From the IMG/VR virus record IMGVR_UViG_3300030330_003102: DNA of 64,000 bases, one strand, 5' to 3'. A program made the translations under genes and the position numbers. Source of the stretch: an uncultured virus (IMG/VR IMGVR_UViG_3300030330_003102) (Duplodnaviria; Heunggongvirae; Uroviricota; Caudoviricetes). Numbering within the stretch: the stretch's first letter is position 1; every line of letters starts with the position of its first letter. Of this stretch, positions 46,298 through 57,477 are shown one piece after another. The notes beneath the pieces were generated by a model. That model did no database searches and was not told where the DNA came from. It saw only the letters and a program-made list of their open reading frames with translations.

Positions 46298-46630
46298 AGT
46301 ATTAGTCAATAATGGGTGGTTTATAAGCATTGAGGTATTAATTTTGTTATTTTGGCGTTTTTCTGAAGAAATTAAACGCTTTACTGCGCTAATATCTTCT
46401 AATTCTTCAATTTTTTCTATAATGTAGAGAAGTTTCCTACGGAAACTATAGTAGTTATAGTATAGTAGTGGTTAGTAAGGGGCCGCTATACCAAACATAC
46501 CATTGAAGAAATTGAAATAATTCAAAAGGACCTTTCAGTACAACGATTTATTTTTTCAGTAAAAGTCTAAAACAATGAAAACAATTATCTATACTCAATG
46601 CTTATAGGACTCTCATTTGTGGGAAGTTAT

Positions 46631-48064
46631 ATGGGGAACTACACAGGTGGTTACGAGTTAATCGAAAAATTTGCACAGGACAGACACTTTGGTTCTACAC
46701 TAGAATTTGCAGAGTTTTTGCATGGTATAGAACCTGCGCGTGGTGTTCATGCGTGGAGACAGGCAATTAACAGGTGGGTCAAGAAGGGCAATTCCTTCCG
46801 CAACTTCGACATTGATGATACAACTATCTCTACAACTAAAATCTACTATGATGATTCCAATGACAATTATATTGTCATGTTGGATATAGCAGACGGGCTT
46901 GTTATCATAGATGGCGACACTCACCGTGCTATGAAAGAGGCTTATTCTGATGTGGGCGGCGGACTTACCGTTGATGAGATGGCTCGTAAGTTTGAAATGC
47001 CAGCAGCCGTTATTAGTGAGTATATCAGGGTGAATAAGTGGAAGCATGGTATGCAACCATTCACCGATGAAGAAATAATGTCTCACACACTAGATGATAT
47101 GGTAGATAAGTTTCTTGATATACGCAAACTAGAGATTCTTAAGAAGGCAGAAAGGAAGAAGTGGCGACAAATTGAGAAGGATGCCGAACAATACTTGATG
47201 CTTCGTGAAGGTCTTGCCGATTCTTTCCTTGAGGCGCTAGGCGACCATAAACCAGCGCCAGTCAAAAACCGAAACATGAAAATGGATAAGGAGTACGCAG
47301 TTGTTCTTTCTCCTACCGACCTACACTTTGGTAAGTATGGTTGGATTGATGAGGTAGGTACATCTTACGACTTAGACGAGGCACGCACCCGCGTATTAGA
47401 CAAGACAGAGGAATTACTAGCGAGATTACCAAGTAAGCCCGACAAGTTCTATGTTGGTGTTGGCTCTGATTGGTTCCATGTTGATAATGATATTGGTACT
47501 ACTACTAAAGGTACTGCACAGGATATGGCCGGAACTTCTGCTCAAATAGTTATGGAGGGTTGTGACCTAGCACGACAACATATTGACTTACTTAGAAGTG
47601 TTAGTGATGTTGAACTTGTTTTCATGGGAGGCAACCACGATAGACATACCAGTCTTATGCTTATGCTATATCTTGAAGCATACTACAAAGATTGCGACGA
47701 TGTTAATGTGGTTGTAAGCCCATACGCTCGTCAATATGTGACCTACGGAAATAATCTCATCGGATTTACACATGGCGATGGGAAGATTATGAATAAATTA
47801 TCATCTTTGATGGCCCACGAAGCGAGGAGAGATTGGGGTCAAACCGCACATCACTTGTGGTTTCATGGACATCTACATCATCAGCAGATGCGGGAGATGG
47901 GTGGCTGTATAGTAGTACAGTTGCCAAGCCTTGCTGGTAAGGACAGGTATCATGCGCGTAATGGTTATGTTATGGCGCGTGCTGGTTTGTCTGCGTATAT
48001 GATAGATAAGGACATGGGATTAATTGGGAGCCTGTTTGCTCCGGTGATGCACGATGACGAGTAG
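46631..48064 (+). CDS. HTH-containing calcineurin-like metallophosphoesterase
   Basis: TDLHFG, GSDWFH, GNHD, THGD, GHLH; N-terminal HTH-like segment. Confidence 0.88.
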   Translation: MGNYTGGYELIEKFAQDRHFGSTLEFAEFLHGIEPARGVHAWRQAINRWVKKGNSFRNFDIDDTTISTTKIYYDDSNDNYIVMLDIADGLVIIDGDTHRAMKEAYSDVGGGLTVDEMARKFEMPAAVISEYIRVNKWKHGMQPFTDEEIMSHTLDDMVDKFLDIRKLEILKKAERKKWRQIEKDAEQYLMLREGLADSFLEALGDHKPAPVKNRNMKMDKEYAVVLSPTDLHFGKYGWIDEVGTSYDLDEARTRVLDKTEELLARLPSKPDKFYVGVGSDWFHVDNDIGTTTKGTAQDMAGTSAQIVMEGCDLARQHIDLLRSVSDVELVFMGGNHDRHTSLMLMLYLEAYYKDCDDVNVVVSPYARQYVTYGNNLIGFTHGDGKIMNKLSSLMAHEARRDWGQTAHHLWFHGHLHHQQMREMGGCIVVQLPSLAGKDRYHARNGYVMARAGLSAYMIDKDMGLIGSLFAPVMHDDE

Positions 48065-48179: not shown

Positions 48180-49690
48180 GTTTCACACAAGACTTAGCGA
48201 TGGAAAGGTCGCGTAGTTCCGTTCAGTATTTCTACGAGTGGCTTGGCTACACTTGGGGAGAACACATTGGCGAATGGATGGATATGTACGGAGATAGAAA
48301 GGGTGCGGAAGTCCATCGCGTTTGTATAATTGCACCAAGAGGGCACAGTAAATCAACTACTCTTAGGGTTAAACTACTTCATCAATGTCTTTTTGAAAAG
48401 TGGAATAACGACAGGCCCTTTACCTGTTGGTTGATTTCTGCTAGTAAGGACACGGCTATTAGAAGATTGCAGGAAATACGCGATGATATGAGGCGTCATC
48501 CTCAGTTGTCTAGGTATCTTGACCCGAAGAAGGGCAACAAGACCGAGATTCACTTTACGAATGGCGCATGGATTATGGCGACATCGGTTGGGTCTGCGAT
48601 TCGTGGTGAGCATCCCGCGTGCGTAGCATTCGATGATGTGTTGGTTGATTCAGATGAGATGAACCCTCGCGTTCTACAACAATGGTTTAGAAAGGCTATT
48701 ACTCCTATGCTTGACCCTAACTCGTCAATATATGTCGTTGGTACTCCTATGTCTATGACCGACCTTTACCATACTGAGATGCTGGAGAACCCTACTTGGA
48801 AAACTGGTACTTGGGCCTCTATCAAAAACTACGATGAGTGGAAAGCGAGTGAGGAGACTATACCTGCTATTCCTCTTTGGCCTCAACATCGAAGTATTAA
48901 TTACTTATTGGAACAGAAGGCCGCAATCGGTGAGTTAGAGTTTGCACAGGAGTTTTTATGTAGGGTTGTTGATGATGACTCTGCTGTGTACCCGCAGAAT
49001 CTTATTCGTAAGAATCTTGACCTTGATACTATTATTCAACCGGAGAAGTTGGAGAATAATAGATATGTTATTGGGTTTGACCCCTCGCATGGTTTGGGTC
49101 AGGACTACTCTGTTCTTGTTGTGTTAAGACAGGACGAAAATGGGTATGTCCACTTCGTAAATATGTGGAGGCGTAATGATTTCCCACCTGCCGAACAAAC
49201 TGATGTTCTTATTGAGTGGGCGAAGCGTTATGGTGCGGCGGTTGCTGCGGAAGATGTTGGGTTCCAACAGATGTATGATACTTTGATTCAACAGAAGGGC
49301 GCGGTTGTAGATTACCGACCTAGTAAGGTTGGTAATAAAACTTTGAAGCAGGGCCTGATGAACAGACTTAGAGTTTGGTTTGAGCGTGAGATGGTTGCGT
49401 TTCCTTATGGCAACGACGAAACACGAAGGATGGTAAATATCATTCTTGNNNNNNNNNNTGAATTGAAAACTCATGCTTGGCGTGACGGCCTTATTGTTGA
49501 TTTGGGTCGTCACAACGATACTGTAATGGCTTTTGCACATGCCATAGACCAATTTACTTACCAAACACCTGACATGCCTGTCATTATGAAAACGATGGGT
49601 ACTGGTGAATGGATGGGGGGTTCTACTAAGGGCCTACCTCGCACAAGGTCAGGCGTTGGCGGCAGAGTAATTAACAGGAGTGATTTCTAA
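48176..49690 (+). CDS. terL: Terminase large subunit
   Basis: PRGHSKST Walker A, FDD Walker B, VGTP, IGFDP nuclease, HNDTVMA; contains a 10-N gap. Confidence 0.93.
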   Translation: MSFTQDLAMERSRSSVQYFYEWLGYTWGEHIGEWMDMYGDRKGAEVHRVCIIAPRGHSKSTTLRVKLLHQCLFEKWNNDRPFTCWLISASKDTAIRRLQEIRDDMRRHPQLSRYLDPKKGNKTEIHFTNGAWIMATSVGSAIRGEHPACVAFDDVLVDSDEMNPRVLQQWFRKAITPMLDPNSSIYVVGTPMSMTDLYHTEMLENPTWKTGTWASIKNYDEWKASEETIPAIPLWPQHRSINYLLEQKAAIGELEFAQEFLCRVVDDDSAVYPQNLIRKNLDLDTIIQPEKLENNRYVIGFDPSHGLGQDYSVLVVLRQDENGYVHFVNMWRRNDFPPAEQTDVLIEWAKRYGAAVAAEDVGFQQMYDTLIQQKGAVVDYRPSKVGNKTLKQGLMNRLRVWFEREMVAFPYGNDETRRMVNIILXXXXELKTHAWRDGLIVDLGRHNDTVMAFAHAIDQFTYQTPDMPVIMKTMGTGEWMGGSTKGLPRTRSGVGGRVINRSDF

Positions 49691-49938
49691 TGGCTGGGCC
49701 TCTACCTCGTAAAAAGTTATACCGCCATCTTGTGAAGCAGTTAGTGGCCGATGGTTTCTTTGATGACTGGCGAACTACTGGCGAAATTTGTTATGAGGTG
49801 AACAAGGGCGTTCCTGTACGCTGGAGTCCGATGTCTCATTCTAGGGTATTTATGTACATGAGAGAGTTGGCTCTTGAGGAAAGGTACATTTGGGAAAACC
49901 CACAGAACAGCATGGTTCGTTCTTGGAAAAAATCTTAA
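49690..49938 (+). CDS. Small putative winged-helix protein
   Basis: TAATG-coupled to TerL; TTGEI..E..helix-hairpin pattern. Confidence 0.55.
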   Translation: MAGPLPRKKLYRHLVKQLVADGFFDDWRTTGEICYEVNKGVPVRWSPMSHSRVFMYMRELALEERYIWENPQNSMVRSWKKS

Positions 49939-50170: not shown

Positions 50171-51076
50171 TCAGTTATCACCCCCAAACAAGTGCCCGTT
50201 GTAAGGCTCCTCTTGGATTACTCCGCCGGGGCTGTCGCTGATTATCTTGACAATCTCGGCGTAATCCTCAGCGCGTGGGTCAATACCGAACATCACGCGT
50301 CCCTTCTTCTCATGTGGTAGCACAGCGAACCTCATGTGACTATCTGCCTGACAGAGTCCGAAGCAGGTCTTCTTACCGCAGAGGATGTCTAGGCAGGTGG
50401 TTGCGTATCGGTATGTGACCGGCTTGGTTGGGTTCTTTCCGTTGCCGCTTCTCTTGTTTAGGGTGCGGTAGCCGGCAACCCATAGTTGGCCGTTGCGTAG
50501 TCCTAGAATTGGAACCTTGAATTCCTTCTCTAGTCCGGCTCTAACCTTGTTGTAGTAATCAGCGGCTATGTGTCCAATCTTGGTGAAGATACCAGTTGGG
50601 AAACCGGGACAGTTACCCTCCTTGATGCCGCCACCGATGGTTCGCTCTCCGCCACCAGTACCGTAGGTTGGATGAATGAAGCAAGCAGGGTCATCACAAT
50701 TGCAAACTTCCCTAACTCCTTCAACCAGTTTGACAGTAGTTGAAACGGCTCTGTCTGCCGCCGAGTTTGTCACATCAATGATTTCGTTTGTGATGGACTT
50801 GTTATAGACTGATACTCTCCAAGTACCGTCTTGGGCTCCGCTTCTGTCAGCAGGGTTGTATTCACAAGGTAGCAAGTAACCGAACACAGTTGGTGCGGTC
50901 AACTTCTCAAGACCGAATCGGATTGCTGTGTGAGGTGTTGTATATCCTAGGTCAACTAGTGCAAGTTGATACCATAGGAACAACGACTCCCACAGAGTCC
51001 AATTTGGACTCGCGTTCAATGCCCCTTTCTTGCGGGGGGCTTCCTCCTTTCGTAGTAGTGGCATGTCATTAGACAT
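50171..51076 (-). CDS. Hypothetical protein, 301 aa, Cys/His clusters
   Basis: Long ORF; TATA-like AGTATATTA about 25 nt upstream. Confidence 0.8.
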   Translation of the reverse strand: MSNDMPLLRKEEAPRKKGALNASPNWTLWESLFLWYQLALVDLGYTTPHTAIRFGLEKLTAPTVFGYLLPCEYNPADRSGAQDGTWRVSVYNKSITNEIIDVTNSAADRAVSTTVKLVEGVREVCNCDDPACFIHPTYGTGGGERTIGGGIKEGNCPGFPTGIFTKIGHIAADYYNKVRAGLEKEFKVPILGLRNGQLWVAGYRTLNKRSGNGKNPTKPVTYRYATTCLDILCGKKTCFGLCQADSHMRFAVLPHEKKGRVMFGIDPRAEDYAEIVKIISDSPGGVIQEEPYNGHLFGGDN

Positions 51077-51180
51077 ACCCCGCCGTGCGGCTCCCCAGTA
51101 ATATACTTACCTCGCATTTTCTTCGATTTTGGGCTATGCCGGGGGGTTTTCTTCCGACGCCGGGGCCACTTTGAACGGGC

Positions 51181-51257
51181 CTGAATCTAGGTTGAGATTG
51201 AGTCTGAATCTAGGTTTGAGATTGAGTCTGAATGTAGATTTGAGATTAGGTCTGAAT
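51181..51257. repeat. About 3.3 tandem copies of a 23-24 bp unit CTGAATCTAGG(T)TTGAGATTGAGT
   Basis: Units start at 51181, 51204, 51228 and 51252. Confidence 0.85.
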
Positions 51258-51514
51258 ATCGTTCACTTTCACTTTCACTTTCAGTTTTCGCCTGTTCACT
51301 TTCAGCGGAACTACATAAGATTACTACATAACATTCCTACATAACATGATAAAAAAAAAGAAAAACTACATAACAAAAAAACTTCAAAAACTACATAACA
51401 AAAAGTACATAATTTTGGAGTTCAAAAAACTACATAAGTTTGAGTTCATCCTTTTGCCCCGCTACCCCGCATGAACTACATAACGGGGTAACGAGGACTT
51501 GGGCTTTCGTTGTT

Positions 51515-51712
51515 CTAGTCAGTCTCAACCAAAATGCTCTCAATCTCAATACCGCATATTGGGCAGAAGTGGTGGTGGGGGTGAAGGCGCTTCTTACCGG
51601 AACTACATAACTGGGGGTTATCACAGTTGGGGCAATCAGCGTGTACAGTTGAAGTCATTTTAGTTCTAACAAACGGGTGTTGACCGCGAAGAACTCGGAA
51701 GCCAGTTCCCAT
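51515..51712 (-). CDS. Small Cys/His-rich protein
   Basis: CPNC...CPIC; TGAATG-coupled to the upstream micro-ORF. Confidence 0.55.
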   Translation of the reverse strand: MGTGFRVLRGQHPFVRTKMTSTVHADCPNCDNPQLCSSGKKRLHPHHHFCPICGIEIESILVETD

Positions 51713-51823
51713 TCAGGCCACCACCGTGCATGAGCATACTATGAGAAGCGCATCGGTTCCCTCAGTACCATCGTAGAAGTCAATCATCATTAAGGCGTCT
51801 TGTGGTGTGCAGTTGCAAGCCAT
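51713..51823 (-). CDS. 36-aa protein (not in ORF track)
   Basis: MACNCTPQD...CSCTVVA; TATA-like TTGATATA about 22 nt upstream. Confidence 0.5.
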   Translation of the reverse strand: MACNCTPQDALMMIDFYDGTEGTDALLIVCSCTVVA

Positions 51824-51879
51824 GATACTACGACCCCCCCTCTACTATATCAATGCTTTGTTGAACTACATAACACGGT

Positions 51880-52206
51880 TTACTCATTCAATTCAACCTC
51901 GATTTCTCTAGGAGATGGCTCTGTCTCGCCCCGCGCAAGCACTCTAACTACATAACGATGAGGTACATAACGCAACTTCTTCCAACTCCATAGATGGCGC
52001 TGATTAACTACATAACTATAATACCACGCAGTAGCAGCATTATAACTCAAACTACATAACACCCAATAGACGATTTTAGTAACTACATAACCTTTATCGG
52101 GAACTACATAAGATAGGAATTGTTCTGCATCATCCTCACTCTCAAATATCTCACAACCCGCCCTGCTAGGGCATCCTCTATTGTAATTGATTTGTATTCT
52201 GCTCAT
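51880..52206 (-). CDS. Hypothetical protein carrying embedded repeat copies
   Basis: TGAATG-coupled; YVV/LCS peptides encoded by the repeat. Confidence 0.5.
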   Translation of the reverse strand: MSRIQINYNRGCPSRAGCEIFESEDDAEQFLSYVVPDKGYVVTKIVYWVLCSLSYNAATAWYYSYVVNQRHLWSWKKLRYVPHRYVVRVLARGETEPSPREIEVELNE

Positions 52207-52374
52207 TCAATACACCCTTGTTTTAACGCTCAACACGCGGCAACCCTTGCCTAGATTAGCCTTGAAGTGTTCAAGGCTCTCATCACATAGGAAGTTAGCA
52301 ACCCATGTGCTAACCCCGCATGTCCATTTCACTTGGTGGTGTACTCTTTCCCATGACTCTCTTGCTCGACTCAT
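52207..52374 (-). CDS. 55-aa protein (not in ORF track)
   Basis: MSRARESWER...; promoter ACCCTTATACC upstream. Confidence 0.6.
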   Translation of the reverse strand: MSRARESWERVHHQVKWTCGVSTWVANFLCDESLEHFKANLGKGCRVLSVKTRVY

Positions 52375-52683
52375 AATTACACCACATCGGGCATTGGGTA
52401 TAAGGGTTCCGGCTAACTACATAACATTACTACATAACATTTTCATAACTACATAACATGGTGATAACTACATAACAAAATGAAAAACTACATAATAAAT
52501 TCAAAATCAAAAACTACATAATAAATCCAAAACTACATAATAAAGGCCCCTCTCCGCCGTCAGGCGGGTCTTCGGGGTTATGTCCGGGTTCAAAGAGTGG
52601 GCGCTACCCCCGCCGTTAGGCCTCAAAGTCCGTCTGTTCGTGACATTGTCACGCTATTGCATCCTGATGGAATCGTAATCCGT

Positions 52684-52836
52684 CTAGGCCACCGTAATCT
52701 CAACCTTGTGGACTGAGGCTTGCCCCATGTCATCCACACCTGAGAGAACCAAATCTCTCGCGGACTCGTCAATCAAGTCCGAGGCGTCTATCTCTACGGT
52801 CATCTCCAATACTACATCATAACTTACTGTTTGCAT
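52684..52836 (-). CDS. 50-aa acidic protein (not in ORF track)
   Basis: MQTVSYDVVLEMTVEID...; SD GGAGG; promoter AGGTTCATAAG. Confidence 0.65.
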   Translation of the reverse strand: MQTVSYDVVLEMTVEIDASDLIDESARDLVLSGVDDMGQASVHKVEITVA

Positions 52837-53062
52837 GTTTTCTCCTCCCTTGTCGGGTAATCCGTCCTCGTAGTCGTCCCTTATGAACCTGTTGCTTAAC
52901 TACATAACATTTAGCGGCGCTTAACTACATAACATTTGTAGTTTGTGGAACTACATAACATAACTACATAACATTTGTAGTACACAACAAAATAAAAACT
53001 ACATAACAAAATCCAAAATCCTAATCCGAAATCCTAATTACAAATTTTAGCGTAGATTAAGC

Positions 53063-53380
53063 CTAGAAAAATTCAGGGGGGTAGTCGTGGAACTTCTCGC
53101 AAGCCAAATCAAATGCAGCGTCTGCCTTCCTCTCTTGCTCTCTCTCCCATGCACCCTCATCTAACTCCATCTCCGGGGAGTCATCGAAGTCAGTACAGTC
53201 TCCTTGAATTAGGTCTAGTTCGCTGTCGGGTAGTGGGATGATAGCCATGCCGATTTCAAGTTGAATATCGTTCAGATGCATCCCATGCTTGTTCTCAAGC
53301 AACGACACCAGTTTGTATAGGGCCGCCCTCGATTCTATCAGTTGCAGTTGTAGTTCTTGTATCATGTCCGCTTGGTCCAT
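53063..53380 (-). CDS. Acidic hypothetical protein
   Basis: Own promoter ACCTTAAGTACC; D/E-rich. Confidence 0.75.
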   Translation of the reverse strand: MDQADMIQELQLQLIESRAALYKLVSLLENKHGMHLNDIQLEIGMAIIPLPDSELDLIQGDCTDFDDSPEMELDEGAWEREQERKADAAFDLACEKFHDYPPEFF

Positions 53381-53599
53381 ACCCCGACGACAGGGTGTAG
53401 GTACTTAAGGTTCGCCCTCCTTTGTTATGTAGTTTTGACTAAGGTTGCGCCCTCGGAGACTACATAACATTATGTATGATTGGTAGCAACTACATAACAT
53501 TAACTACATAACATTAACTACATAATATATTAACATGAAAACTACATAACAAAGTATGAGTACAAAACTACATAACGAAAAACTACATATCAGTTCCAA

Positions 53600-53977
53600 T
53601 CAGACGCAGTAAGCACAATGACTACTGCCGCACTTGCATGATGGTTCGACTGGGTTGGCTGCTATCCATGCGTGCCAGTTGTGATTAAGAGGAGTCTCAG
53701 TCTGCATGACCCACACGGAGAGGCAGTTGCCCTCGACCTCGGTGCAGTTATCGTCAATCTCTAACTCGCCGTTCTGCTCTAGGAGGCACACAGCGTCCCA
53801 AAAGGCGCTACGAGGAATAACATCTTCATCAAACTCATAGTGATGAATATAACCAGCACCCTGCTCAAATTCACCATCCTCAAACGCCTCCCTTACCAAC
53901 ATTCTCACCAATTGGATTTGATGAGGTAGGAGTATAGTCATTCTTGGGGCTTGTCCGTTCGATTTTAGGTCGCTCAT
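53600..53977 (-). CDS. Acidic hypothetical protein with Cys-rich tail
   Basis: Own promoter AGGTTCATAAG. Confidence 0.75.
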   Translation of the reverse strand: MSDLKSNGQAPRMTILLPHQIQLVRMLVREAFEDGEFEQGAGYIHHYEFDEDVIPRSAFWDAVCLLEQNGELEIDDNCTEVEGNCLSVWVMQTETPLNHNWHAWIAANPVEPSCKCGSSHCAYCV

Positions 53978-54229
53978 GGTCTATCCATAGAGCATCCCCT
54001 TATGAACCTGCCGATATTATGTTATGTAGTTTTGACAAGCCGATACTATGTTATGTAGTTTCCGCTACTGAATCAACACGACCCCAAACTACATAACATT
54101 ATGTACCTATATGATACTTACTACATGATGAAAACTACATAACATTTTCCTAACAATTCTAAAACTACATAACATTCAAAACTACAAAAAAAGTGGGGGG
54201 CCGAAGCCCCCCAAAAACTACATAACCGA

Positions 54230-54478
54230 TTAGGTTTCGGCGTCCTCGATTTTGTCCCAGTCCGGCTCTTGGATGTCGGAAATTTTCTCCCAAAGTTTGT
54301 CCACATCAATTCCGCGCTCGCTGAGTAGTTTTGCGATGAAATGAATTTGGTTCAGACTGAGCGATGTGCCGTCGTCGCCGCCGAGATTGTTGTCAACTTC
54401 GCGGATGCCGATGGCGTACAATCTGATTAGATTCTTGGTTGATAGTTCGGGCAGTTTGGCTATGTATCGTGTCCTCAT
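54230..54478 (-). CDS. Hypothetical protein
   Basis: Own promoter ACCCTTAAGTACC; hairpin GGGGGC..GCCCCC downstream. Confidence 0.7.
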   Translation of the reverse strand: MRTRYIAKLPELSTKNLIRLYAIGIREVDNNLGGDDGTSLSLNQIHFIAKLLSERGIDVDKLWEKISDIQEPDWDKIEDAET

Positions 54479-54639
54479 ATTACTGGGATAGCGGTTGGGT
54501 ACTTAAGGGTTTTGTTGCCTATGTTATGTAGTTTTTCGCGGGACATTTAGTAGTATAATAACTACATAACATTATGTAGGAGCGTATTATTTTTTACTTG
54601 ACAAAAAAATACATAACATTATGTAGATGTAATTTGAAA

Positions 54640-54879
54640 AAAGAAAGTTCCCGCAACGCCCCCGCTTCATCAGGGCGGGGTGCGCTTAGGAGGAGCGGTG
54701 ATGAACCGCGAGAGCGTCAGCATCGCAATACTCTCACCCGCACATACGGGCCTTGCCTCCCACTTGGTTAGAGTCAGCGTCAGACTCTTTCGCGGTGCTC
54801 CGCCCCAAGCGCGGGGTCTGCACCTTGTGCCTTCCGTAACCCCCCATGAGAGGCGTTGGTTGGCCCGCCGTTGCAGACA
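54640..54879 (-). ncRNA. Putative structured ncRNA A (family unknown)
   Basis: Promoter AGGTTCTTATA, no ATG at the usual position, 5'/3' closing stem, U-rich terminator, covariation with RNA B. Confidence 0.75.
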
Positions 54880-55002
54880 AGGTGAACGAACAGCCCTGAG
54901 TATAAGAACCTTTCTATGACTACATAACATTATGTATCATCGGCGTTATACGCTTGGATTAAATTACTACATAACATTATGTAGGTGTAATTTTAAGAAA
55001 AA

Positions 55003-55242
55003 GAAAAAACCCCGCCACCTTCCCCTTTCCACAGGGGCGAGGCTTCGGAAGGGCTGGCTTGGAAAGCCAGCGAGGTCGCGAACCTCACCCGCCTATACGG
55101 GCTTACTTCCTACCTGATGAGCCGTATTTCATCTCTCTCAGGCGCGGGGCCGCTCAACCCCTGCTTTTCGCTACCCACCAAATACCACAGAACACTCGCG
55201 GAGGTCGTAGGATATTACATCGGTGGGGGGGTGTCTTGCGAC
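55003..55242 (-). ncRNA. Putative structured ncRNA B (paralog of A)
   Basis: Promoter AGGTTCATAAG, closing stem ACCCCCCCACC/GGUGGCGGGGU, U-rich terminator, shared core with A. Confidence 0.75.
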
Positions 55243-55388
55243 AAACCTCCGTGTCGTCGTTTGCTTATGAACCTTTCTATCACTACATAACATTATGTAA
55301 TGTTGGGTCAGTAAGTATAATAACTACATAATATATCACCGGAGGACTTACGCGGGCAAGCCCGCCGCCCCCGGATGATACATGATGA

Positions 55389-55694
55389 TTAGAAATCTAC
55401 GCTTCTGATTATGAAGCGGTCGTCGTCATATCCGGCTATGACCGTAGTCTGTGTTTCAATGTCCTCAATGGTTTCCCAATCGCCATAAGATTCTTGAAAC
55501 TCCTCAAGGTTCTCAAATTCTGTGAAATCACAGCATATAGCGATTACATCAAGTTCAATCTCAATGCCGCAATCATCTTCAAGGTCAGTCAAGTATTCGT
55601 ATAGCGCGAAGCGACCTAAGCGGGAGAAGTTCGCTTCTCTGCCCATATCGTCAAACGCTTGTACGAAGCGGTATTCGCTTACAGTATCTCTCAT
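55389..55694 (-). CDS. Acidic viral hypothetical protein
   Basis: F..AF..MGR..NFS..G..AL..YL...IELDVIAICCDF pattern that I recall from phage proteins; own promoter. Confidence 0.75.
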   Translation of the reverse strand: MRDTVSEYRFVQAFDDMGREANFSRLGRFALYEYLTDLEDDCGIEIELDVIAICCDFTEFENLEEFQESYGDWETIEDIETQTTVIAGYDDDRFIIRSVDF

Positions 55695-55839
55695 AGTTGG
55701 CCCACTTACTCCACCCTTATGAACCTTACGCATAACTACATAACATTAACTACATAACTTATGTAGTTAGTATGCATAACTTAATCAAAAACTACAAAAC
55801 ATTAAAATAATCCAAAAATCCAAAAACTACATAAGATAA

Positions 55840-56028
55840 CTACATAAGTTCTGTGTCATCCCTCCCCTCGTTCACTACATTGTCAATAATCATATTCATA
55901 ACGCGGTCATGCTCTGCGTAGAGGTCAGCGAAAGTTGCCAACCTCTCTCCCTCTTGGTTCTCGCCAACCGTCCTCAGTCCGGCCATTACGATTCTTTCAA
56001 TCCATCTGTATTCATGGGTCTTGTCCAT
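55840..56028 (-). CDS. Hypothetical protein
   Basis: Own promoter ACCCTTAAGTACC; stop codon lies inside a repeat copy. Confidence 0.65.
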   Translation of the reverse strand: MDKTHEYRWIERIVMAGLRTVGENQEGERLATFADLYAEHDRVMNMIIDNVVNEGRDDTELM

Positions 56029-56213
56029 GATACTGGGAGGGGGTGGGGGTACTTAAGGGTGTCGTTTAACTACATAACATTTCGTTGACTAACTACATAA
56101 CATTATGTAGTTTGTGTTGGTTAACTACATAACATCAAAACTACATAACAATTTGTAGTTCCAAAAACTACATAACATTTTCGGTTTCAAAACTACATAA
56201 CATGTTGTAGTTT

Positions 56214-56295
56214 CACTTGGTGCAAAAACTACACCGAGTGTAGTAAATTACACCGGGTGCAAAAAGTGAAGCAGGTGTGCTTGTGGCACTAGGTG
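56214..56295. promoter_or_regulatory. Four CACYNRGTG palindromes at the divergence point
   Basis: CACTTGGTG 56214, CACCGAGTG 56232, CACCGGGTG 56251, CACTAGGTG 56287. Confidence 0.6.
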
Positions 56296-56495
56296 TTTGA
56301 AGCAAAACCGAAAACTACATAATAAATCCAAATTGCGAACCTTTAAGTAGTTGTTCTTCTTCTCGCTTTGGGCTTCGGCTTCGCGGCCCCTGCGAAATAA
56401 CTACATAATCCGTAAAAGTAACTACATAAGATAACTACAAAACAAATTGTAGTTCAACGAAGCCTTTAAGTACCCCACCGCCGTCAGAGAAATTA

Positions 56496-57149
56496 ATGAG
56501 CGACCTACTAGACCGCATCGAACAGAAGAAAGCAGACATGAGAGAAGCCCGTGCAGGTATGAAGCAGGGCATCAAATACTCCTCGCGCTCGCTAGGAGGA
56601 CACACCACGCAGTACCGCAAACTGTGCCGCGAGGCGGGCATTCCAGTTGAGATAACCAAGATTGTCCAAGCAGAGGAGACACCGGCCCCGACCATCGGCA
56701 AGCCCTGCCGCTACAAGGCGTGCAAGGGACGCAATCACAAGTTGCACGGCGAAAAATGCCCGGTAGCATCAGCGAGAGGCAAAACCGGCGGACTGAACGG
56801 CGATGGAGAAGCCAAGCAACGCTTGGGAAGCACGAACGGAAACTTTAGGGCTGTTAGGCCGTGTGGCTGTCCCATGAGAGCGCACAAGCCCGACTGTGAA
56901 CACGCTAGACCGGCCAACCGCAAGGACTTCGGCACTACGGCGAAAAAGGTCAGACAGGTTCTCAATATCCAGTCAATCTCATGGCAGAGCAAGGCTCTCA
57001 GCGTGGGTGCAGTTGCACACATGATGAGAGGTGTCACAGGCGTCTGCTCAGGTTGCAAAGAATCAATCCCGGCTGTACAGGCCGTCAAGGTTCACCCTGA
57101 CGACATCATGCAGAATCCAGCACGGGTCATCTGCGGAGGGTGTGAGTGA
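56496..57149 (+). CDS. Basic Cys/His-rich putative nucleic-acid-binding protein
   Basis: C..C..H..C, CGC..H..C, CSGC...CGGC; promoter CCTTTAAGTACC. Confidence 0.75.
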   Translation: MSDLLDRIEQKKADMREARAGMKQGIKYSSRSLGGHTTQYRKLCREAGIPVEITKIVQAEETPAPTIGKPCRYKACKGRNHKLHGEKCPVASARGKTGGLNGDGEAKQRLGSTNGNFRAVRPCGCPMRAHKPDCEHARPANRKDFGTTAKKVRQVLNIQSISWQSKALSVGAVAHMMRGVTGVCSGCKESIPAVQAVKVHPDDIMQNPARVICGGCE

Positions 57150-57202
57150 CGCTTGCGAGGCACGAACACAACGATAATAAACTGAGGAGTAGTGGAAAAA
57201 AT

Positions 57203-57421
57203 ATGAGCAATTGGGAGAGAATAATGGCTGGCGCATACATTGACGGCGGCTGGATGATAATTAGCGAAAGCACGGTGGGCGTTGATGCCTACGGCTATGA
57301 AGCACCCGAAGCAAAGCATGACTGGGTCATCTTTCAAGGCGGAGAACACATTGGTGATAAGCCCACACTCGCAGAAGCGAAGAAGTATGCTGACGCGCAT
57401 TACCTTCTGTGGCCGTTCTGA
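57203..57421 (+). CDS. Hypothetical protein
   Basis: Start placed by the upstream element. Confidence 0.65.
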   Translation: MSNWERIMAGAYIDGGWMIISESTVGVDAYGYEAPEAKHDWVIFQGGEHIGDKPTLAEAKKYADAHYLLWPF

Positions 57422-57477
57422 TGACGCTTGCGAGACACGAAGGGAACAATTAAAAGGAACGACGGAGAGGAGAAAAT

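Follow-up and report, generated by a model that had tools for sequence, protein, structure and literature searches.

Lineage-specific operator-like repeats and a candidate DNA-binding protein, OrfA, as an optional module of magroviruses

We analysed a stretch of 64,000 nucleotides (nt), hereafter the window, from the 73,630-nt genome of an uncultured tailed virus (IMG/VR record IMGVR_UViG_3300030330_003102; Caudoviricetes). The terminase operon and a rightward operon of small genes flank an array of short repeats in which small transcription units are embedded, together with a gene, orfA, for a candidate DNA-binding protein of 301 amino acids (aa). The best reading of this module is an optional viral regulator with its operators, which would control early cargo genes. 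The module and its borders comprise the following features.

49690..49938, plus strand: conserved 82-aa gene after the terminase, left border with or without an array; matched in 63 of 84 loci
50171..51076, minus strand: orfA, 301 aa, two predicted Cys clusters and conserved basic residues, candidate DNA-binding protein; own promoter without an upstream motif
51309..56443, no single strand: array of 63 copies of AACTACATAAC (57 plus, 6 minus), from a motif scan of window and genome
53460..56210, no single strand: ten palindromic full sites, CTACATAA-NN-TTATGTAG, starting at 53460, 54089, 54562, 54609, 54920, 54967, 55283, 56093, 56141 and 56193
56496..57149, plus strand: 217-aa Cys-rich gene, right border with or without an array, first in the rightward early operon; a motif precedes its promoter TATA by about 10 nt

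A first-pass annotation, made from the letters of the window, had described about 60 copies of one motif here and had noticed none elsewhere in the window. The 63 copies were counted at no more than one mismatch, against a mean of 1.5 and a maximum of 5 in shuffled sequence, and no copy was found outside the array in the whole genome, which bears out both statements. The fuller site is the palindrome, with ten copies at no more than two mismatches. The array word, an 11-nt word or an 18-20-nt palindrome, is separate from the TATA boxes and terminators. Roughly 50 copies lie in the spacers; most of them point the same way, and the distance between them is often about 14 nt. A misassembled array, which the annotation had named as a possible refutation, was ruled out by an independent contig (L122) with 99.7% identity over 17.5 kilobases (kb), array included, and by two exact contigs of run X1, from which this DNA may have come, that overlap across the array. 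The read data consist of contigs, which give no ends, strands or levels, and stretches without contigs are uninformative. A genome-wide motif was also ruled out, the word being confined to the array here and to one block of at most 10 kb in each of three near-complete array genomes among the relatives. A GC hairpin with a copy of the word in its loop stands right behind a stop codon at 51458-51496, and the same layout recurs in relative L004 (8445-8485).

All 12 unit starts were located where the first-pass annotation had placed them. The orfA unit, starting at 51076, is the first of these, its gene body lying just outside 51077..56495, and the rightward unit is that of the 217-aa gene. The cargo units between them, with their open reading frames (ORFs), are listed below.

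51515..51823, minus strand: cassette with 36-aa and 65-aa Cys-rich ORFs, likely one transcript; RNA contig 51518-51722 in run X17
52207..52374, minus strand: cassette with a 55-aa ORF; RNA contig 52162-52344 in run X18
52684..52836, minus strand: cassette with a 50-aa acidic ORF, leadered; ORF and promoter analysis
53063..53380, minus strand: cassette with a 105-aa acidic ORF; ORF and promoter analysis
53600..53977, minus strand: cassette with a 125-aa acidic ORF; RNA contig 53603-53770 in X18
54230..54478, minus strand: cassette with an 82-aa ORF, followed by a hairpin/T-run terminator at 54213-54194; terminator scan
54640..54879, minus strand: structured RNA R1, about 240 nt, multi-way junction and predicted kissing loop; 100%-identical RNA contigs in X17 and X18
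55000..55242, minus strand: structured RNA R2, paralogue of R1 with compensatory kissing-loop letters; folding and comparison
55389..55694, minus strand: cassette with a 101-aa ORF (phrog_9974, function unknown), widespread and mobile; RNA contig 55376-55692 in X17
55840..56028, minus strand: cassette with a 62-aa acidic ORF; ORF and promoter analysis

In nine of the ten protein units the ATG follows the TATA octamer at a distance of 20-23 nt, and these units were therefore classed as leaderless-type, in keeping with the proposal of leaderless mRNAs. The exception is the unit at 52836, with a gap of 43 nt and a GGAGG, which was classed as leadered. The two TATA variants that had been named as nearly universal serve eight of the 12 units, the others being 51076, 51823, 52374 and 54879. 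The word lies upstream of the TATA box in 11 of 12 units, orfA being the exception that had already been noticed. The 51823 unit is likely bicistronic (36 aa and 65 aa). A terminator scan gave 10 matches against 5.5 expected, of which one is clear (54213-54194, minus), and both RNA units finish in a hairpin and U-run. Seven of the nine cargo proteins are acidic, and Pfam and PHROGs gave nothing beyond weak matches for the cargo. Exact metatranscriptome contigs from two runs of one study (X17 and X18) lie on R1 and four protein cassettes; such contigs show neither strand nor level and may include DNA carry-over.

Relatives were collected by terminase (best 80 of 211 loci) and by the 217-aa border gene (33 loci, plus the best 80 of 126). 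The comparison set was chosen by hand and comprises the window and 50 loci with the terminase C-terminus and at least 3 kb downstream, after removal of duplicate contigs and of most near-copies. In many relatives an array occupies the corresponding position, and the word round its TACA core is particular to the lineage (AACTACAAAAC, TACTACAAATT, CCCTACAAAAT, GCCTACAAAAC, GGTTACAAAAA, AGTTACATAAT, GCCTACGAAGT and more). Other relatives have the cassette region without an array and with their own TATA promoters. Among the window ORFs, the only genes common to all three array genomes and missing in both non-array genomes are two head-module genes, which also occur in L025, a relative assigned to neither state. 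Eight array-free relatives (L185, L096, L103, L143, L144, L170, L177 and L032) carry 10-24 copies of AATCCAAA in their spacers; in the spacers of the window this sequence often precedes the TACA motif, for instance at 52495-52541.

The presence of orfA follows that of the array. With the two traits scored separately, an ORF of 250-466 aa begins no more than 1.8 kb from the terminase in each of the 31 array loci, and none of the 20 loci without an array has an ORF of at least 240 aa within that distance. The joint state changes five times on the terminase tree, every change being forced by starred branches. L011 and L014 have border genes that are 90-92% identical and share nothing between them, orfA and the array being present in L014 only. 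A further locus outside the 51, L001 (3.0 kb read), has 99% identity in the terminase and 100% in the border gene and carries neither. The word itself changes with the protein: among 44 pairs with near-identical terminases, which are not independent of one another, all 15 pairs with similar OrfA have the same word, and 27 of the 29 with unlike OrfA have different words. In these sequence comparisons, orfA and the array behave as an optional block, and relatives without it keep the cassette region. In some array lineages a second gene of 190-260 aa lies right behind orfA (L050 4758-5537, L060 8964-9599, L110 4090-4665), possibly a partner or paralogue of orfA. Four 24-nt tandem copies stand upstream of the orfA promoter at 51169-51263.

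Two sequence searches with OrfA returned 10 and 13 hits, and 29 clusters were found among 1.84 billion representatives; where domains and names were shown, the homologues had no Pfam domain and no informative name. OrfA matched nothing in Pfam, PHROGs, the PDB sequences or the ESM Atlas. A first structural model, with a predicted local distance difference test score (pLDDT) of 46, was uninformative, as was the search made with it. The model from a 53-sequence alignment reached a pLDDT of 84 and a predicted template modelling score of 0.81 and shows an N-terminal helix pair and long beta strands. Against the PDB this model had no match by Foldseek and none of 48,161 chains at Z >= 2 by VIA-align; in BFVD it retrieved one unnamed viral protein (A0A516M115, 250 aa, E 8e-4, TM 0.36-0.42). 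These blank searches do not prove a new fold. The two Cys clusters are conserved, as are eight Arg/Lys positions; no acidic residue reaches 60% conservation, and the isoelectric point is above 7 in 39 of 50 full-length members. The 53 sequences show no conserved acidic triad, no invariant Tyr or Ser, and no HUH or DDE-like conserved residues. The Cys clusters, the basic positions, the lack of a conserved acidic residue and the basic isoelectric point together fit a non-catalytic, zinc-binding, DNA-binding protein, which we infer OrfA to be.

The position of the word relative to the promoters was examined with a leaderless-type pattern, which found 59 promoters in 17 array loci. A motif lies within 45 nt of the TATA box in 50 of the 59 promoters. 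Thirty-seven of these 50 proximal motifs are 8-17 nt upstream of the TATA box and none is closer than 7 nt, so most sites are just upstream of the box and off it, as with activators that bind upstream of the B recognition element (BRE). Archaeal activators typically bind there, and repressors on or downstream of the promoter (PMC5512572, in part). Inverted word pairs dominate at an offset of 11 across lineages (39 of 58), and both halves change together. In the L004, L018, L014, L110 and L120 lineages the order is palindrome, 9-14 nt, TATA box, about 21-24 nt and ATG, each lineage using its own word in both halves. Copies near the TATA box peak at 11-12 nt when reverse-oriented and at 15-17 nt when forward, which shifts the core by about half a helical turn and hints at face-specific contact.

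Cargo content turns over fast among the related magroviruses. With L004, whose terminase is 90% identical, the window shares only two of nine protein cargo ORFs, and some cargo is found elsewhere or inverted in distant relatives. A DUF932-like gene stands inside the array as a leftward cassette in L070 (8773-10416) and L076 (5601-7202), and the window copy is in the rightward operon (58687). Shared blocks between relatives are mostly collinear, and in array-free pairs with close border genes, three near-identical pairs apart, interval sharing is 57-72% in seven pairs and 50% in an eighth. Since array-free pairs turn over as much, with mostly collinear order, turnover does not depend on the word. 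Contigs of different strains part from one another at palindromes, with loose ends at 54936 and 56091 and a joint from 55281 to 54966, and the RNA cassettes are mosaics of promoters and bodies. Of 45 block ends, 21 have a motif no more than 15 nt away, compared with 29% of random points; the test is biased, and the excess is inflated because BLAST extends through shared motifs. The idea that the repeats drive shuffling thus kept its strong turnover and some breakpoints at palindromes and lost ground to the equally variable array-free relatives and the collinear order; the word may serve as a crossover point.

Whatever its action, OrfA is, on these sequence patterns, probably the binder of the word. 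That it activates the cassette promoters and the rightward early operon, with the spacer copies aiding cooperative loading or buffering, has about an even chance of being correct. On this account, orfA would be expressed soon after infection from its own motif-free promoter, and OrfA would bind palindromes or half-sites 8-17 nt upstream of each TATA box, beside the BRE. Bound OrfA would help to recruit the host factors TFB and TBP, and their recruitment would turn on the leaderless units at the same time as the rightward early operon. Over the spacer copies, OrfA might load cooperatively along the 5-kb domain, or its level might be buffered. The earlier proposal of a protein that coats and regulates the domain has thereby gained a candidate in OrfA and a conserved operator geometry; the coating itself stays a proposal. 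Only tentatively can OrfA be regarded as a new-fold class of zinc-binding viral transcription factor, and its array as a swappable module that is gained, lost and re-coded as a block and gives each lineage a private switch and coat. If so, every lineage would have an orthogonal on-switch for its protein and RNA cassettes, and co-infecting relatives could not cross-activate one another.

Several results weigh against activation by OrfA. The independent pairs agree on array and orfA in four of four cases, for which a sign test gives p = 0.125. When all pairs are taken together, the correlation of the word with terminase distance (rho 0.49) is at least as good as that with OrfA distance (0.43). 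Since orfA is the direct neighbour of the array, both co-occurrence and co-change could come from linkage or block replacement. Of the 31 ORFs, 20 are homologues confirmed by a hidden Markov model, 17 of them members of the profile itself; the other 11 were assigned by position and an R-x-x-C pattern, with weak profile support (E about 0.006) or none. OrfA resembles no known DNA-binding fold in the sequence and fold searches. At the promoters, three of the 17 array loci gave no promoter under the pattern used, the CCTACAAAA and L060 lineages have motif-TATA gaps of about 24-26 nt, and L004 has a copy between the orfA TATA box and the ATG, a repressor-type place. Activation alone does not account for the roughly five-sixths of all copies that lie away from promoters. 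Pure-AT TATA cores (22 of 45 versus 14 of 43, a noisy comparison) did not show weaker TATA boxes in array genomes.

The rivals to activation are taken here in descending order of probability. OrfA may bind the word as a repressor or silencer, coating the domain and shutting early cargo later or in a carrier state, an unlikely reading for which most copies filling the spacers would suit spreading and the downstream copy in L004 would be well placed. Aca8 and F55 are thought to act as such repressors. AvtR, which goes from activation to repression on oligomerising, also speaks for this reading; against it, none of the 50 promoter-proximal copies falls within 6 nt of the TATA box, whereas F55 sites overlap the BRE and the transcription start site (PMC5569661 for both, in part). 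A dual role, activator and then repressor, fits both readings. Less probable still is that the array works as an iteron-type replication origin or a centromere-like site and that OrfA is its initiator or adaptor. Cumulative GC skew is low at 55-57 kb, where transcription diverges, and the co-oriented direct repeats have a 14-nt spacing peak; however, the skew is equally low at 44-45 kb, the copies are spread across 5 kb and associated with TATA boxes, 20 of 51 relatives lack the module and keep the same border genes, and Pfam scans of 43 window proteins, a part of all genes, identified neither a ParA nor a TubZ motor.

A host operator or chromatin-protein site, borrowed or titrated by the virus with orfA merely travelling along, has a small chance, linkage being able to account for the co-occurrence. 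Against it, the word changes with the OrfA type between viruses of near-identical terminases, and the exact 18-mer gave four single hits in 185,579 prokaryote genomes, none titled Poseidoniales, a search that a degenerate site would escape. We give slightly less credit to the words as recombination sites at which an OrfA recombinase, or short homologies, would shuffle cassettes in the manner of the promoter early stem-loop (PeSL) elements of T4-type phages. The divergence of strain contigs at palindromes, the mosaic RNA cassettes and the block ends speak for it; the turnover in array-free pairs, the collinear order and the inflation of the block-end figure speak against it, as does an OrfA without a conserved acidic triad or invariant Tyr or Ser, the missing fold match excluding nothing. 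Passive recombination at the repeats is likely as a side effect. In RAYT/REP systems a protein spreads its own site, and a selfish unit of orfA and words acting in this manner is very improbable. The patchy distribution with five changes and the lineage-specific words tied to protein type would agree with it, but the copies are confined to the block in the four genomes examined and stand at a fixed distance from TATA boxes, and OrfA has no HUH or DDE-like conserved residues.

Besides proteins, the array carries RNA cargo. R1 and R2 fold better than shuffled sequences (z -2.6 and -3.3), and in a per-sequence check a loop-loop complement of 6-8 nt was present in eight of nine aligned copies of the family, with compensatory letters in R2; RNAalifold on a MAFFT alignment missed this kissing loop. 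Rfam covariance models gave only four chance-level hits, none on R1 or R2, which constitute an undescribed family of structured RNAs of about 240 nt. Members were observed in L014, L004, L142, L029, L156, L022 and L145. The RNAs suspected in the first pass are thus real structured RNAs, and since relatives occur in array and non-array loci they are not tied to the array. Another non-coding cassette, unlike R1 and R2, is present in L004 (9766-10075, minus) and L104 (7372-7588); it is GC-rich, about 300 nt long and has a promoter of its own.

The surrounding genes place the virus. PolB, a clamp-loader-type ATPase, ERCC4, a chaperonin (GroEL), the portal and the terminase are encoded in opposed blocks. 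An archaeal-type replisome and a head-tail module in two opposed clusters, together with GroEL, are magrovirus features (PMC10768690), and the virus is a magrovirus (Magrovirales), probably group C-like. A calcineurin-like phosphoesterase between portal and terminase (46598-48064) fits group C, whose members have an inserted gene like the PolD exonuclease subunit and no ligase (PMC5434244, in part). No ligase was found among the 43 window proteins scanned; the group C placement is a provisional one made from gene content. The OrfA cluster of one relative includes a protein from a Euryarchaeota bin, and we infer that the hosts are Marine Group II archaea.

The 217-aa border gene was considered as reader of the word and is unlikely in this role because it is near-identical in L011 and L014, which have opposite array states. 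A second motif, GACGCTTGCGA, precedes start codons of the rightward early operon by about 55-60 nt (window 57149, 57424, 58106, 58632, 60505 and 61871; genome 64177). It is kept in array and non-array genomes, with 10, 1, 11, 6 and 7 exact copies in G001-G005, and one strain contig jumps from 57160 to 57436, between two of its copies. A conserved non-coding stretch with ACAC-NNN-GTGT palindromes (window 56215-56345; L004 11355-11480; L185 3940-3985) lies where transcription diverges or immediately after the terminase operon, in genomes with an array and in others without one, and is a candidate origin or genome-end signal. Far from the array, the genome ends (350-2829 and 71209-73630) hold two strain versions of the same three genes, and because these versions are diverged the scaffold likely joins two strains. 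Runs of N occur at 49449, 59673 and 73206.

As far as the available parts of the cited papers go, one of the closest likenesses is to the early-gene element of SIRV2 and its proposed reader Aca8, where an archaeal virus has many small single genes of unknown function that share a virus-specific promoter element, the proposed reader is encoded by the virus, and the flanking motifs vary between viruses (PMC11065993). In the magrovirus, 11 of 12 units have a shared element before small single genes, early by inferred timing. The SIRV2 system has one element per gene and a small winged helix-turn-helix repressor, whereas here about 60 discrete sites lie mostly outside promoters, in an optional block with sites at an activator position, beside a Cys-rich protein of about 300 aa without a known fold match. 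The SIRV2-type cargo is anti-defence; the magrovirus cargo is unannotated apart from weak matches. The PeSL cassettes of phages RB49 and phi1 likewise hold hyperplastic non-essential genes between repeated promoter elements, with cargo that varies among relatives; they consist of a sigma70 promoter and terminator stem-loop, and recombination and mini-circles were shown for them (PMC2839356). By contrast, the array word is not a promoter fused to a terminator stem-loop: it is a repeat that resembles a protein site and has a gene dedicated to it, and cargo turns over without it. Halovirus HF2, also an archaeal tailed virus, has repeated promoter-bearing class I/II intergenic elements, 7 + 2 long repeats whose sequence and position are kept throughout the genus and for which no cognate protein is named (PMC8707807), while the magrovirus word is short, lineage-specific and present in dozens of copies. 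Multiple short sites right upstream of BRE/TATA are also known for Ptr2, TFB-RF1, EarA, the ara-box factor and the viral proteins F55 and AvtR, and AvtR oligomerises along DNA as proposed for OrfA (PMC5512572, PMC5569661). These are helix-turn-helix or ribbon-helix-helix proteins acting at one to a few promoters, and OrfA shows no similarity to any of them in sequence or fold searches.

The dozens of discrete sites, the lineage-specific words, the dedicated protein and the gain and loss as a block set this module apart from each compared system. Our literature search, from which supplements and Zhou et al. 2023 were left out and may bear on novelty, found no description of an orfA-array system. 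Term searches in four magrovirus papers (PMC11706807, PMC10160649, PMC5434244, PMC5332604) and the text of PMC10768690 gave no such repeats or promoters.

Collectively, OrfA and its word form a directly testable pair of protein and site, for which nature offers a series of more than ten variants of the word, each matched to a variant of the protein. To our knowledge, few viral activators are known in archaea, and the series is large enough to map the recognition code of a protein that has no known fold and to yield orthogonal regulators for archaea. Magroviruses are abundant and uncultured, and the array marks out their likely early, host-takeover cargo, including an undescribed structured RNA family.

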